A DNA stretch of 28,823 bases, taken from Candidatus Micrarchaeota archaeon (lineage in GTDB: Archaea; B1Sed10-29; JAJRYS01). The stretch is taken from contig JAZDJV010000088.1 of assembly GCA_043803585.1 (NCBI GenBank), forward strand, positions 1 to 28,823, in the 5' to 3' direction. Made by a program: the position numbers and the translations under genes. Within the stretch, counting starts at the first letter, position 1. Every line of letters starts with the position of its first letter. Below are positions 14,479 to 21,379 of this stretch, one piece after another. The notes under the pieces are model-generated. The model was not told the DNA's origin, ran no database searches, and saw nothing but the letters and a program-made list of their open reading frames with translations.

Positions 14479-14551
14479 GCCTCGGTAGCTCAGCCGGTGG
14501 AGCATCCGACTGTTAATCGGAAGGCCGTGAGTTCAAATCTCACCCGAGGCG
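14479..14551 (+). tRNA. tRNA-Asn (GTT), no intron, CCA not encoded
   Basis: Cloverleaf folded by hand: acceptor GCCTCGG/CCGAGGC, D stem GCTC/GAGC, anticodon arm TCCGA-CTGTTAA-TCGGA, T arm GTGAG-TTCAAAT-CTCAC, discriminator G. G15 is present. Confidence 0.97.
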
Positions 14552-14556
14552 CTCTC

Positions 14557-14711: not shown

Positions 14712-15347
14712 TCAGCAGAAATCCTGCGTTATGTAAACTGTTTCGTTTTCAGCGATTGCAACGCCTATTCCTTCTGTTTCCCATTCAGGCTTGAGCAGGT
14801 TGTCCCTGTGCGCCGCGCTGTCCATCCACCCCTGCACAGTTGACTGCGCGAGGTCCTCGAATGTTTTGTAGTCAGAGTGGTCGTACGTTCCGTTGACGTA
14901 ATAGTTCATTGACACCAGGTAGTTTCTGTACAAATTTTCCCCGCCTGTCAGGAAAGTGCTTGTTCCGATGCTGATATAGCATGAGAAATTAAGCTCGTCG
15001 TATCTCGATTTTGGAGTTGAGCCGTCCAGCCCAATGTGGTCAAAGAAACCTTCTACTGCCATGTAATTGCTGTATTTGCGGGCAACAGCCTGCAGATGCT
15101 TGTTGAATTCCAGCTCGCCTGCTCCATATTCAACTCTTAGTTCGTTCACAATCTCGTGGATGCGCAGCTCAAGGGCGTTGATGTCAATCCCGTTGCTCTC
15201 GTTCGGCCCGAACAGCGAAGGCTCGGGAACGTAATCAACAATTGTATTGTCCCCGTTTCCGTTGTAGCAGCTGCTGCATCCATTGCAGCCGCTGAGAAAT
15301 AGCATGACGCTGATTGAAAGCAAGGCAATAACTTTTTCATTTTTCAT
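14712..15347 (-). CDS. CAP (SCP/PR-1) domain lipoprotein
   Basis: Lipobox-like LFLSGC; CAP motifs IHEIVNELR, VARKYSNYMA..GFFDH, GGENLY, QGWMDSAAHRDNLL and GIGVA...YITQDFC. Confidence 0.92.
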   Translation of the reverse strand: MKNEKVIALLSISVMLFLSGCNGCSSCYNGNGDNTIVDYVPEPSLFGPNESNGIDINALELRIHEIVNELRVEYGAGELEFNKHLQAVARKYSNYMAVEGFFDHIGLDGSTPKSRYDELNFSCYISIGTSTFLTGGENLYRNYLVSMNYYVNGTYDHSDYKTFEDLAQSTVQGWMDSAAHRDNLLKPEWETEGIGVAIAENETVYITQDFC

Positions 15348-16654
15348 AATTTCAAGTCCGCCAGATTCCTGCGCAGGGAGGCCAGCGCTTCGACGCGCGC
15401 GACAGGATTTTTTTCAGCCTTAATCTGCTCGTAGGTATCTACATCAAGCAGGTTTTTTAATGCGATGCCGAGCTCTTCGCAGGCCTGCGAAACAGCTTTG
15501 TAAGTGTCAGAGTCAGGCTTCAGATAGCAGTAAACATGCTTGTAGTGGTTTTTGTGCGCTTTCAGATAAGCGAACACTCTTTTCATTGTGACTTCCGTGT
15601 ATTCTTTCCTGATTTCAGGCGTTTCCTCCCACTCGGGCCAGTCATAGGCGCTGAAAGGGTAGTGGCCGTTGAACTCCATAGGGATTACGCCGGGCGTTGA
15701 AACCACGACGCTGTGCATCTGTTTTGCGGCCCCCGTCTGTTTCAAAACCCTGAAAATTTCCATGTGCGTCTGCGACCTTGAATAGGGCTTGCGCGCAGAG
15801 CAGGGCAGAAACAGAAGGAATTTCTTGTCCGCAGGGGGCTTGTAAAATCTTTCGAAATAGTCCTGCCACACGTTGAAAAACGGATGATTAAGAATTTCGG
15901 AAGTCGCCCCTTTCAGCAGTTTCTTCTGCTCATTTGGAAATTTCGGCAAAAACATGTAGTTCTGCGCGTCTGTCTCAATATGCGGTTTGTGCTTGTATTT
16001 CTGGACAAGCTTGTTGAATTCATCCTCGCTGATAGGCTTCCATTTTCCGCTTATCCAAAGGTCAAACAGCTTCGCCTTCGAGTGCGGAAAAGTGTTGATG
16101 AGCACGATTGAATCGCTGTATTTGTCAGCGAATTCGACACTTGGGTCAAGGTTCTCTGGTTTTGAAAACGGCATGTTTACCATCAGATAAGTGCGCACTT
16201 TGTGCCCTCTTTCGTGGAGAAGCTCGGCTGCTTTTGCAAAATCTTCTTTTGTGAACCCCTTTCCGTAATTTTTGAGGACAGTGTTGTCAGCGCACTCAAG
16301 TCCTATCGCCACATTGAGCTCAAGCCCTGTGAAATCCTTGAGGCTGTCGTCTGTCACAAATTCAGGCCTGCTTTCAATTGTCAGCTTTTTGACTCCCTTT
16401 TCGCGGACATAGTCAGCGAACCATTTCCTGAATTCAGGGCTGAACTGCTTGTTGTCAAGGAAAGAGCCTGAAGCGAATATCTTCAGCTCGTCAGTTCTGC
16501 CTATGTCAGCTGCCTGCACCTTTCTCTTGCACGCTTCCATGTCAAACGGCGCCTCAAGCTGGCCCCATCCGCACGCAAAGCACTTGCCCCAGCTGCATTT
16601 TCCGCTTGACAGAATGAGAGTTTTTACGGTCATTTTGATTTGCCTCTTAGTCAT
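15344..16654 (-). CDS. Fusion of a RaSEA-like radical SAM domain and an ArcS-like (DUF5591) domain; putative archaeosine synthase
   Basis: Residues 1-240: GKCSWGKCFACG, KIFASGSFLD, TIESRPEFV, VAIGLE, LWISGKWKP (COG1244/RaSEA-like). Residues 250-436: YKPP...FLLFLPCSARKPYSRSQTH...VVVSTPGVIP.E...YPF..YD (ArcS catalytic-domain motifs). Confidence 0.85.
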   Translation of the reverse strand: MTKRQIKMTVKTLILSSGKCSWGKCFACGWGQLEAPFDMEACKRKVQAADIGRTDELKIFASGSFLDNKQFSPEFRKWFADYVREKGVKKLTIESRPEFVTDDSLKDFTGLELNVAIGLECADNTVLKNYGKGFTKEDFAKAAELLHERGHKVRTYLMVNMPFSKPENLDPSVEFADKYSDSIVLINTFPHSKAKLFDLWISGKWKPISEDEFNKLVQKYKHKPHIETDAQNYMFLPKFPNEQKKLLKGATSEILNHPFFNVWQDYFERFYKPPADKKFLLFLPCSARKPYSRSQTHMEIFRVLKQTGAAKQMHSVVVSTPGVIPMEFNGHYPFSAYDWPEWEETPEIRKEYTEVTMKRVFAYLKAHKNHYKHVYCYLKPDSDTYKAVSQACEELGIALKNLLDVDTYEQIKAEKNPVARVEALASLRRNLADLKL

Positions 16655-17307
16655 TTCAAATTCTTTTTGAAATTATTATAAGCAACGTCATCAACAATTA
16701 TTTTTCCATCAATTCTTTTATTGTGCAAATGGTCGAATAATTCTGTTGCAGTTAATACTGAATAAACAGGCAAATCTTTCCCTTCCATTTCTTTAACTGC
16801 ATTCATTCCCGTTTTCCCCCCTTCCTGCCTGTCGAATAGAACCACAAGACCAATAATTTTAATATTTTTTCCTGTCGCCTTTATTTTTGCAAGCATATCC
16901 AGTTTGGTCCCGCCGTCTGTTATTACATCATCAAGTATTATCGCTCTGTCATCATCATTCAAGTCGCCAACAAATAGCCTGTCTTTTTCATCGTCATAAT
17001 TCTTAGACTCTTTTCTGTCATACACAAATCTCACGTTTTTTCCGCGCCTTGCTAGCTCTTCTGCAGCTGAAATTGCAAGCGGGATGCCGGCATAGGACGG
17101 GCCTATTATCACTTCAAACTTTAGGCTATTTTTTTCAATAACATCTGCGTAATATTTGCCGATTTCAATCATCGCATTTCCATCGTTCAGCCTTCTTGTA
17201 TTGTAAAAATACGAACTCTTTCTGCCGGATTTCAGTGTGAATTTCCCAAATTTGAGAACTTCATTTTTCAAAAGAAGGGAGATAACACTTTTGTCCGTTT
17301 CCACCAC
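16651..17307 (-). CDS. pyrE: Orotate phosphoribosyltransferase
   Basis: LKFGKFTLKSGRKSSYFYN, GPSYAGIPLA, DRKE and PRPP motif IILDDVITDGGT. Its stop overlaps the next gene's start (ATGA). Confidence 0.95.
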   Translation of the reverse strand: MVETDKSVISLLLKNEVLKFGKFTLKSGRKSSYFYNTRRLNDGNAMIEIGKYYADVIEKNSLKFEVIIGPSYAGIPLAISAAEELARRGKNVRFVYDRKESKNYDDEKDRLFVGDLNDDDRAIILDDVITDGGTKLDMLAKIKATGKNIKIIGLVVLFDRQEGGKTGMNAVKEMEGKDLPVYSVLTATELFDHLHNKRIDGKIIVDDVAYNNFKKNLK

Positions 17308-17355
17308 CCCGTTGCGGCCATGATTATATATTGCGCAGGTGCGTATATATTAGCT

Positions 17356-18135
17356 ATGGTAAGAAAAGAAAACCGCACAAGAATGCAGCGTTTCAGAGAC
17401 TGGCGCATAAGAGCGGATGATGAAGTAAGCAGAAGGGACGCCGAAAACATTGATTATCTCGCCGGCCAGGTCAAAGATTATGTCAGCAAGGGCGCCGTGA
17501 TTCTCGGAGTTGACAACAGCGCCCGCATGACTGTTTTCGGCCTCAAGGAGGCACTGAAATTGAGGGGAGTGAACTCCGGCAGGCAGCATTTCATAAATTA
17601 CAGCAGATATAAGCTGGGAGCCGAAGGCAGAATCCTAGCAAAGCCTGTTGAAACAGGAGAGCACATTGGCCACCTTGTGAAAAGGCTGAAAAAAGATTAC
17701 AAAGACATTCTGGGAAACAAACCGAAAATTCTGGTTGTTGACTCGCTTGCTTACGGCGGGGGCTCGATTTCAAACGTAAAAAAGGCCCTGGAAATCGCCT
17801 TTCCAAAAGCGCAGATTAAAACAGCTGTCCTTGAAATCGCCGGAAACGCGGAGAACAGGGCGGCGGTGGATTTTGCGGCCGCTAAGACAAAATCAATAAT
17901 GGATTTTGGAAAATTGTCGGCGCCCATCACAGACAAAGTGGTGGAATACAGAAAAAACGGGGAAAAGCGCTATTATACAGTCACTGAAAAAATGCCCCAA
18001 AATTATTCGTTTATGAAGGGAATCCCTGGATACGCTTTCAGCAGGGAAGAATACTCAAGAAAAAGGAAAAACCTGCTTGCGGGGCTCAGATGGCTGCACT
18101 CTGCGCGAAAAGGGACTCAATATCGGCACCTGTGA
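17356..18135 (+). CDS. Hypothetical basic protein with a degenerate type I phosphoribosyltransferase-like fold
   Basis: VILGVDNSAR and ILVVDSLAYGGGSISNVKKAL...IKTAVL mimic the PRTase core. Start set at ATG 17356, downstream of a TATA-like box at 17324. The 3' end overlaps ksgA by 50 nt (convergent). Confidence 0.6.
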   Translation: MVRKENRTRMQRFRDWRIRADDEVSRRDAENIDYLAGQVKDYVSKGAVILGVDNSARMTVFGLKEALKLRGVNSGRQHFINYSRYKLGAEGRILAKPVETGEHIGHLVKRLKKDYKDILGNKPKILVVDSLAYGGGSISNVKKALEIAFPKAQIKTAVLEIAGNAENRAAVDFAAAKTKSIMDFGKLSAPITDKVVEYRKNGEKRYYTVTEKMPQNYSFMKGIPGYAFSREEYSRKRKNLLAGLRWLHSARKGTQYRHL

Positions 18136-20605: not shown

Positions 20606-21379
20606 ATGGCGGAAAAGCTGGTCAAAAGAAACGTTCTTTTTGTATATGGCACTGGTTATGAGGGGCGGTATGCCGATGGAAAAGAATTCAATAAAGAAAC
20701 TGGCTTTCCAAAAAACAAAAAAGATTTTGAAAATCAGAAAGAAATCCTTGAAAAGGCCGGTTACCCCAAGGAATTCATAAATTCAATGAAGCACCCGGTT
20801 GAACTACATTATGATTCAATCGCCCGCACCATAAAAACCGCCCAGGAAAAAGGAATAATCGTTATAATTCAGTCTAAGTCCACTCCTTTTTACAGAAGAC
20901 TGCGCAGAGGAAAGGGCGTTTTTGCAGGCATTGACCCTAAAAAAATCAGAAGTCTTGACGAAATAAGGACTTATTCAGATTTAAGAAAAAGGGGCGTTGA
21001 AATCGGGGATGTTTTTCATGCCGGGCACTGGAGGGATGTCTGTGTAAGCGGGATGATAAAATTTACCAGAGATTATAACATCCTTGTTAAAAAGGATCAT
21101 AACAAGCCGGTATATTATTTTACTGCGCCAGGAACAATCGCGCGCCCCGGCGGTGCGGGATCATTAAGCGCAATGAATAAGGAACTTAAGACCGGCAGGA
21201 GTGCCTGGGATATTACGTCATGGTTTGAGAAAGAAAAAGCAGAGAAAACAAAATTCTTAGCTCTTGATTTGAATCTCTTCAAAAAATTCGGCGAAAAGGG
21301 CTGGCAAAAGAAAGTTGAAAGAGTGAATGAAGCACATCTTAGCTGGCTGAAAAAACACCAGCGCAGACGTCGCGCCTAA
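20606..21379 (+). CDS. Hypothetical basic protein, possibly a divergent isochorismatase/nicotinamidase-like cysteine hydrolase fold
   Basis: DLRKRGV...V..AGHWRDVCV...Y.ILVKKD resembles the cysteine hydrolase L..rGi..vvv.G..tdvCV...gy.v.v..D segment. AT-rich (20/60 GC at line 20701), with its own TATA-like box at 20577. Confidence 0.6.
   Translation: MAEKLVKRNVLFVYGTGYEGRYADGKEFNKETGFPKNKKDFENQKEILEKAGYPKEFINSMKHPVELHYDSIARTIKTAQEKGIIVIIQSKSTPFYRRLRRGKGVFAGIDPKKIRSLDEIRTYSDLRKRGVEIGDVFHAGHWRDVCVSGMIKFTRDYNILVKKDHNKPVYYFTAPGTIARPGGAGSLSAMNKELKTGRSAWDITSWFEKEKAEKTKFLALDLNLFKKFGEKGWQKKVERVNEAHLSWLKKHQRRRRA

Follow-up and report, generated by a model that had tools for sequence, protein, structure and literature searches.

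In the ArcS-RaSEA system of Euryarchaeota, ArcS adds lysine to 7-cyano-7-deazaguanine (preQ0) at position 15 of tRNA and RaSEA turns the resulting preQ0-Lys into archaeosine (G+) (PMC11298593). ArcS is active only when complexed with RaSEA (PMC11298593), a complex described for T. kodakarensis (Yokogawa et al., 2019, as cited in PMC11298593), and ArcTGT does not bind ArcS in this organism (PMC11298593). ArcS accepts even the bare preQ0 nucleoside for lysine transfer, an L-shaped tRNA being unnecessary, and structural studies of the ArcS-RaSEA complex with tRNA are still called for (PMC11298593); among the PDB structures searched by sequence and fold, no solved ArcS-RaSEA complex was found. Here we describe an open reading frame (ORF) from a Candidatus Micrarchaeota archaeon (assembly GCA_043803585.1) that combines counterparts of both enzymes. 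It occupies positions 15344..16654 on the reverse strand, on which all its parts given below also lie, of a stretch of 28,823 nucleotides (positions 1 to 28,823 of contig JAZDJV010000088.1), referred to as the window. The N-terminal half of its product is a RaSEA-type radical S-adenosylmethionine (SAM) core and the C-terminal half is an ArcS catalytic core (DUF5591). We consider it quite likely that this fusion is a one-polypeptide archaeosine synthase, in which ArcS (alpha) and RaSEA (beta) have been cut to their catalytic cores and joined.

Architecture of the fusion protein

The NCBIfam RaSEA model TIGR01210 matches residues 10-188 of the fusion over model positions 15-210 of 313 (E 9e-28, 97.4 bits), and Pfam Radical_SAM matches residues 38-175 (E 4e-9). 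The next-best radical SAM families for this half are Elp3 with 40 bits (TIGR01211, 39.8 bits, cut-off 350) and MnmL with 34 bits; judged by sequence profiles, RaSEA is far ahead of any other radical SAM family. In the C-terminal half, Pfam DUF5591 (PF17884) covers residues 263-397 (E 6e-19, 68.8 bits, cut-off 26) and the NCBIfam ArcS model NF040592 covers residues 228-394 over model positions 246-403 of 575 (E 7e-22, 77.7 bits), while a further ArcS model, NF053620, gives 69.6 bits. A previous sequence-only reading of the window had proposed these two halves and had noted that they have neither a TGT-like N-terminal region nor a PUA domain. Both proposals are borne out, as TIGR01210 and DUF5591/ArcS are the top matches and no TGT-like (tRNA-guanine transglycosylase), C2 or PUA domain was found in the fusion with Pfam and NCBIfam profiles or in the alignment with ArcS. 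A GNAT domain was not matched by Pfam either.

The radical SAM core (residues 9-224; 15983..16630) is delimited by TIGR01210, by Elp3 as the nearest solved fold and by its place in the tree described below. It is predicted to form a partial TIM barrel and contains SGSF (62-65), ESRPE (94-98) and GLE (118-120), within the longer stretches SGSFLD (62-67), ESRPEF (94-99) and AIGLE (116-120). The cluster stretch reads K-C-SWGK-C-FA-C-G, which places the [4Fe-4S]/SAM cluster motif at C20-X4-C25-X2-C28 (16571..16597). An inter-domain segment (residues 225-262; 15869..15982) with the invariant residues F235 and P237 connects this core to the ArcS catalytic core (C1 or DUF5591, residues 263-412; 15419..15868), which is recognized by PF17884, by NF040592 and by a match of PDB entry 2q07 in both sequence and fold. 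The ArcS signature, defined as PC-X3-KPY-X2-S-X2-H (PMC10516641), is present as P284-C285-X3-K289-P-Y-X2-S294-X2-H297 (15764..15805) and reads P284-C285-SAR-K289-P-Y-S-R-S-Q-T-H297, with the C285 codon at 15800-15802 when counted from a start at 16654. H314 is followed by SVVVSTPGVIPMEFNGHYPFSAYD, the PGVIP ... YP ... YD stretch, and a C-terminal helical tail (residues 413-436; 15347..15418) ends the chain where canonical ArcS runs on into C2 and PUA. Every motif quoted in the sequence-only reading was found at the residue given there. When 47 homologues are aligned end to end, 45 columns are invariant, some of them in the inter-domain segment. The cluster motif is conserved in these homologues; C28, C285, K289, P290, Y291 and S294 are invariant, and C20, C25, P284 and H297 are conserved to at least 90%.

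An AlphaFold2 model of the fusion, built from the 47 homologues, is compact, with a predicted local distance difference test (pLDDT) score of 94.5 and a predicted template modelling (pTM) score of 0.89, and pLDDT is at least 83 throughout the inter-domain segment. Sequence matches in the PDB are Elp3 for the N-terminal half and AF0587 (2q07) for the C-terminal half, and Foldseek searches with the model retrieve radical SAM enzymes, Elp3 among them, for the former and again 2q07 for the latter. AF0587 corresponds to the C-terminal half of an A. fulgidus ArcS homologue.

The reading-frame check found 436 codons plus stop and no internal stop, as had been claimed. The 436 residues once assigned to the protein hold for the length of the frame; translation probably begins at M8 (ATG at 16633), which would give a product of 429 aa. 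A GAGG lies 9 nt 5' of this ATG, aligned homologues start at M8, and the gene call in the database likewise has 429 aa. With a start at M8, each residue number used here would be 7 lower. The possibility that an assembly or frameshift error has merged two adjacent genes into this ORF can be discounted for practical purposes. Split forms do occur elsewhere, but the same in-frame architecture is encountered in hundreds of independent assemblies, the linker is conserved and carries invariant residues, and the single-chain model is confident. As both domains are found in the same order in related database proteins of 420-440 aa, and as the homologues align from end to end with so many invariant columns, neither a chance frame nor an assembly join explains the fusion.

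In order to define what the fusion keeps and loses, bona fide references were taken from an exhaustive search, namely the stand-alone RaSEAs P0174, P0189 and P0195 (336-355 bits) and the ArcS P0215 (491 bits). In the alignment with RaSEA, the cluster triad, SGSF, ESRPE and GLE are kept and the N-terminal 20-40 residues are lost. In the alignment with the ArcS proteins P0215, P0204 and P0229, C2 and PUA are absent from the fusion and the motif PCSARKPYSxSxTH is common, P0215 sharing the whole signature. Of 120 fusion homologues, 118 have a first spacing of 4 in the cluster motif (CX4CX2C). A motif was also located in 44 stand-alone relatives of 280-420 aa; there, this spacing is 7 in 26, 9 in 7, 4 in 6, 8 in 3 and 3 in 2 cases. 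The CX4CX2C motif had been called non-canonical, which is correct when compared with the general CX3CX2C; it is nevertheless a trait of the clade and is present also in Elp3 and in the six stand-alone relatives just mentioned.

Archaeosine genes, distribution and descent of the family

The genome to which the window belongs (686 kb, 80% complete) encodes a single TGT homologue. This homologue, TgtA, scores 494 bits (cut-off 350), carries PUA at its C-terminus and reaches only 36 bits on the DpdA model (cut-off 200). The fusion ORF holds the only DUF5591 domain and the only RaSEA-like domain of this genome, and neither a stand-alone ArcS nor a stand-alone RaSEA was found in the genome; a QueF-like gene was not found there either. 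The sequence-only reading had named arcTGT and stand-alone arcS or raSEA as genes to look for; the first is thus present and the others were not found. All 18 alignable tRNAs of the genome have G15, including the tRNA-Asn encoded in the window.

Among 31 genomes of the phylum, the fusion occurs in 26 and TgtA in 26, both together in 24. Two genomes, which are 61-62% complete, have the fusion only, two have TgtA only, and three have neither; as these three belong to one genus, they count as one event. None of the 31 genomes has a second DUF5591 gene, and neither a canonical ArcS nor a stand-alone RaSEA was found among them.

With respect to the supply of preQ0, QueC, QueD, QueF and a YhhQ-type transporter were looked for in the genome of the window and none was found; for the queCDE genes, also named in the earlier reading, this result covers QueC and QueD. 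Three PP-loop ORFs were considered as QueC candidates and rejected, since from their sequences they look like ThiI-, NcsA/TtcA- and Dph6-type proteins and none reaches the QueC equivalog cut-off. In the phylum, QueC attains its family cut-off in one of the 31 genomes. Even allowing for 80% completeness, the pattern over 31 genomes indicates that preQ0 is taken from outside by salvage.

In five distant genomes (Thermodiscus, Asgardarchaeum, Methanomethylicia, Altiarchaeota and Culexmicrobium), the sole RaSEA-type domain is that of the fusion. Extra DUF5591 matches, in ORFs of 533-544 aa, occur in three of the five and are read as TgtA, which was confirmed for the one from Culexmicrobium. Of these apparent second DUF5591 genes in genomes of TACK and Asgard archaea, this ORF (G035, contig C4, L093:1372-2985) turned out to be TgtA with 536 bits on TIGR00432, and it matches Pfam DUF5591 with 47 bits through its C1 domain, which is homologous. 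In the Asgard and Methanomethylicia genomes (G032 and G033), ORFs comparable in length give about 26 bits on DUF5591, and the TgtA of the window's genome gives no DUF5591 match. Such TgtA matches to DUF5591 can pass for a second ArcS.

A word-indexed database search gave 355 relatives of the fusion. Among the 120 relatives listed, nearly all have 420-440 aa and both Pfam domains, and those listed with a name are mostly called 'DUF5591 domain-containing protein'. In a scan with one genome per species, relatives of the fusion turned up in at least 573 genomes, and 79 loci from these were kept for locus comparisons. The nearest of the 79 are from Micrarchaeota, with 57-62% identity; others are labelled Aenigmatarchaeota, Iainarchaeota, Altiarchaeota, Nanoarchaeota, Woesearchaeota, Parvarchaeota and Nanohaloarchaea, and several Thermoproteota (Thermodiscus, Culexmicrobium, Methanomethylicia) and an Asgardarchaeum are also represented. 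The fusion is a conserved family that is common in uncultured archaea. In 16 of the 79 loci, tgtA is situated divergently within 6 kb of the fusion gene, directly adjacent in five of them.

Phylogenetic analysis of the radical SAM core by maximum likelihood places 20 of 20 sampled fusions in one clade (SH-aLRT support 98), which also takes in P0144, a radical SAM gene that belongs to a split form, and which is nested among stand-alone RaSEA relatives when Elp3 is used as outgroup. The direction of change can be read from this tree only tentatively, since its root lies on a single, very long branch to Elp3. CX4CX2C is present in both of the stand-alone proteins closest to the clade: P0223, from a metagenome-assembled genome of Nanoarchaeota and named RaSEA by NCBI, has kept the Cys-rich tail, and in P0168 no Cys-rich tail was seen. 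In the tree of DUF5591 domains, fusions and short stand-alone proteins are intermixed and poorly resolved within one short group; no known viral sequence is included, so the kinship of the fusion to the viral protein ArcS2 stays outside the reach of this tree. The rows of both trees were picked by similarity to the query and thus form a biased sample, fragments of less than 195 aa (DUF5591) or less than 280 aa (radical SAM) being excluded.

A fusion in reverse order also exists. P0150 (680 aa; L090:2855-6043) begins with DUF5591 and continues with a more complete RaSEA, which has CX3CX2C and the Cys-rich tail; its gene starts 16 nt after a TGT gene of 376 aa, a resistance-nodulation-division (RND) efflux gene is close by, and the context looks bacterial. 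Since the radical SAM domain of P0150 branches apart from the fusions in N-to-C order described here, DUF5591 and RaSEA domains must have been joined at least twice. The split form (L089:2364-4627) consists of P0144 (544 aa), with a RaSEA-like core behind an endonuclease-III-like extension, whose gene ends 2 nt before that of the stand-alone DUF5591 protein P0147 (208 aa). More radical SAM/SPASM genes and genes for an amidohydrolase, a methyltransferase, a nucleoside deoxyribosyltransferase-like protein and a NUDIX protein belong to the same cluster.

Proposed chemistry and alternative functions

If the fusion is an archaeosine synthase, the cell would take up preQ0, as suggested by the failure to find QueC, QueD and QueF, and TgtA with its PUA domain would, according to its family assignment, exchange G15 of tRNA for preQ0. 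By homology to ArcS of T. kodakarensis, the DUF5591 core with Cys285, Lys289, Tyr291, Ser294 and His297 would then attach the lysine amino group to the nitrile, giving preQ0-Lys15. The radical SAM core would, like RaSEA, hold a [4Fe-4S] cluster through C20, C25 and C28 and cleave SAM, and the 5'-deoxyadenosyl radical would break the lysine C-N bond and leave the amidine, that is G+15. This reading is backed by the joint presence of fusion and TgtA in the phylum, including the one genus without either, by the proximity of tgtA to the fusion gene in other lineages and by the reverse-order fusion beside a TGT gene. Joining the two cores would make the obligatory contact between ArcS and RaSEA permanent. 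The loss of RNA-binding domains may be tolerable because the chemistry of ArcS needs only the preQ0 nucleoside. Substrate channelling between the two putative sites is plausible, and a different mode of tRNA recognition may be surmised. A predicted complex of the fusion with the tRNA-Asn of the window scored 0.05 (best control, 0.07), and one with TgtA, modelled on the idea that the fusion might borrow the PUA domain of TgtA, scored 0.00, the same as the controls, which lends this idea no support and does not speak against it either.

Several observations weigh against an archaeosine synthase of this kind. The RaSEA half, with 97.4 bits, is far under the TIGR01210 equivalog cut-off of 212, and the ArcS half, with 77.7 and 69.6 bits, is far under the equivalog cut-offs of 440 and 600, respectively, in both cases because large stretches of the models have no counterpart in the fusion. 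The C-terminal module of RaSEA of about 90 residues (HNCxxC ... CxC) is absent, a loss on which the sequence-only reading had not remarked, the inter-domain segment taking its place as the chain enters the linker and DUF5591, and the cluster loop is three residues shorter than in most stand-alone RaSEAs (CX4CX2C versus mostly CX7CX2C). In the DUF5591 tree, fusions and short stand-alone proteins are split from the long ArcS proteins by a branch of 1.07 with a support of 100. The neighbours of the fusion gene in the window are pyrE and a gene for a CAP-domain lipoprotein, not tgtA, and no preQ0 importer was found in the genome when the YhhQ type was looked for. Lysine is the assumed nitrogen donor; ArcS from M. 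jannaschii was reported to use NH4+, Gln or Asn (PMC11298593). Finally, viral core-only ArcS2 gives deoxyarchaeosine (dG+) in E. coli without RaSEA, and Sulfolobus virus STSV-2 carries 2'-deoxy-7-carboxy-7-deazaguanosine (dCDG), not dG+ (PMC10516641).

Some of these observations would fit an enzyme with the same fold and partners and another chemistry, forming either a preQ0 derivative other than archaeosine in tRNA or G+ from a donor other than lysine. The place of the DUF5591 half in the short core-only clade rather than among long ArcS proteins, the missing Cys-rich tail together with the shortened cluster loop, the scores under the equivalog cut-offs and the dCDG of STSV-2, whose DUF5591 protein is likewise core-only (PMC10516641), all point in this direction. 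We nevertheless regard it as unlikely, as conservation extends to the whole ArcS signature and to the three cluster cysteines, RaSEA clearly stands closest among radical SAM families, and TgtA, whose only known purpose is archaeosine, has been kept although no other G+ synthase was found. The radical SAM half might also be a catalytically dead structural activator of the ArcS core, G+ being formed by direct amidation. Free ArcS does require RaSEA for activity (PMC11298593), the Cys-rich tail is lost, and phage ArcS2 yields dG+ without RaSEA (PMC10516641), but the cluster cysteines, SGSF, ESRPE and GLE hardly vary, if at all, in a family whose members have diverged to about 45% identity. The conservation of these cysteines and SAM motifs speaks for selection on catalysis, and we give a dead activator very little credence.

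Action on DNA or free nucleosides instead of tRNA, in the manner of ArcS2 and Dpd systems, seems just as improbable. It would agree with the lack of a PUA or other RNA-binding domain, with the ability of ArcS to work on nucleosides (PMC11298593), with the action of viral core-only DUF5591 proteins on DNA together with DpdA (PMC10516641) and with the location of a split relative in a cluster resembling those for nucleoside modification. It is made unlikely by the only TGT of the genome, an equivalog-level tRNA TgtA with PUA that stays far below the DpdA cut-off, by the fusion being a core gene, single-copy and near-universal in the phylum, rather than an island gene, and by a housekeeping context (pyrE, ksgA, topoisomerase VI, rpoF). 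An archaeosine synthase on one chain is therefore the reading that we prefer. In a broader and more doubtful proposal, which we advance only tentatively, the minimal fusion might be the main archaeosine synthase outside Euryarchaeota, that is in DPANN and in parts of Thermoproteota and Asgard, and would work without an RNA-binding domain of its own and without a Cys-rich module; short stand-alone DUF5591 genes, and possibly viral ArcS2, would belong to the same clade.

Neighbourhood of the gene and relation to known systems

The orotate phosphoribosyltransferase gene pyrE (126 bits; 16651-17307, reverse strand) lies upstream of the fusion gene, and its stop overlaps the ATG at 16654 by 4 nt. 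Downstream, a gene for a CAP-domain protein with a lipoprotein-like N-terminus (14712-15347, reverse strand) overlaps the stop of the fusion ORF with its start, again by 4 nt. Because of these overlaps on both sides, the three genes look co-transcribed. The idea that the fusion gene forms a conserved operon with either neighbour was rejected, as neither pyrE nor the CAP-domain gene was found in any of the 79 related loci. The wider surroundings are of the housekeeping type, with pyrE, ksgA, a DUF655 gene, an rpoF-like gene and the genes for topoisomerase VI A and B. Two ORFs on the forward strand amid these housekeeping genes are without assignment: one of 271 aa (17320-18135) has no Pfam or NCBIfam match, and one of 257 aa (20606-21379) has no Pfam match. 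The tRNA-Asn(GTT) gene (14479-14552, forward strand), with G15, has the CAP-domain gene on one side and a DUF1699-like gene on the other. In the whole genome, aragorn predicts 12 tRNAs in plain mode and 19 in intron mode, several with long predicted introns, so that many tRNA genes are probably interrupted or unassembled.

The chemistry and the component enzymes of this route are already known. As far as could be checked, neither the reduction to a single, stripped-down chain nor the wide occurrence of this form outside Euryarchaeota has been described; a full-text literature search found no mention of the fusion, although Yokogawa 2019 or Phillips 2010/2012 may mention it. A chain of about 430 residues with both predicted active sites would be a simpler object for work on structure and mechanism, and could help to address the lysine-binding residues, the passage of the intermediate between sites and the role of the Cys-rich tail of RaSEA. 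With the fusion, the ArcS/RaSEA route would reach into lineages that were believed to have arcS rarely or not at all, and hundreds of genes for a 'DUF5591 domain-containing protein' could be named. Genomes of about 0.7 Mb would keep the last two steps to archaeosine without preQ0 synthesis, which implies a dependence on the host or the environment for the precursor.

Among described systems, Elp3, the radical SAM/acetyltransferase for cm5 at U34 of tRNA, is, among solved structures, closest to the radical SAM half in fold and sequence and has the same CX4CX2C spacing. In contrast to the fusion, Elp3 carries a GNAT/KAT domain, and a separate Elp3-like ORF of 564 codons is encoded on contig C92 of the same genome. 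The QueF-like and GAT-QueC archaeosine synthases of Crenarchaeota occupy the same position in the pathway, from preQ0-tRNA to G+-tRNA, but their folds and chemistry are unrelated to those of the fusion, and neither was found in this genome. ArcS2 from Vibrio phage nt-1 and Sulfolobus virus STSV-2 likewise consists only of the C1 catalytic core of ArcS (PMC10516641). It is, however, a stand-alone protein that works with DpdA on DNA (PMC10516641), whereas the core of the fusion is joined to a radical SAM domain, and the tRNA enzyme TgtA is the one TGT that its genome encodes.

The closest system is the ArcS-RaSEA complex, known from T. kodakarensis among the Euryarchaeota, which has the same catalytic cores, with the DUF5591 motif and the three-Cys core of the TIGR01210 type, and the same upstream enzyme TgtA, and in which the two activities are obligatorily associated. 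The complex is built from two proteins of about 575 and about 330 aa and the fusion from one chain of about 430 aa, which does without the TGT-like N-terminal domain, C2 and PUA of ArcS and without the N-terminal extension and the CxxC...CxC module of RaSEA. Whereas the ArcS-RaSEA complex belongs to Euryarchaeota, the fusion is encountered in DPANN, in some Thermoproteota and in an Asgard genome.

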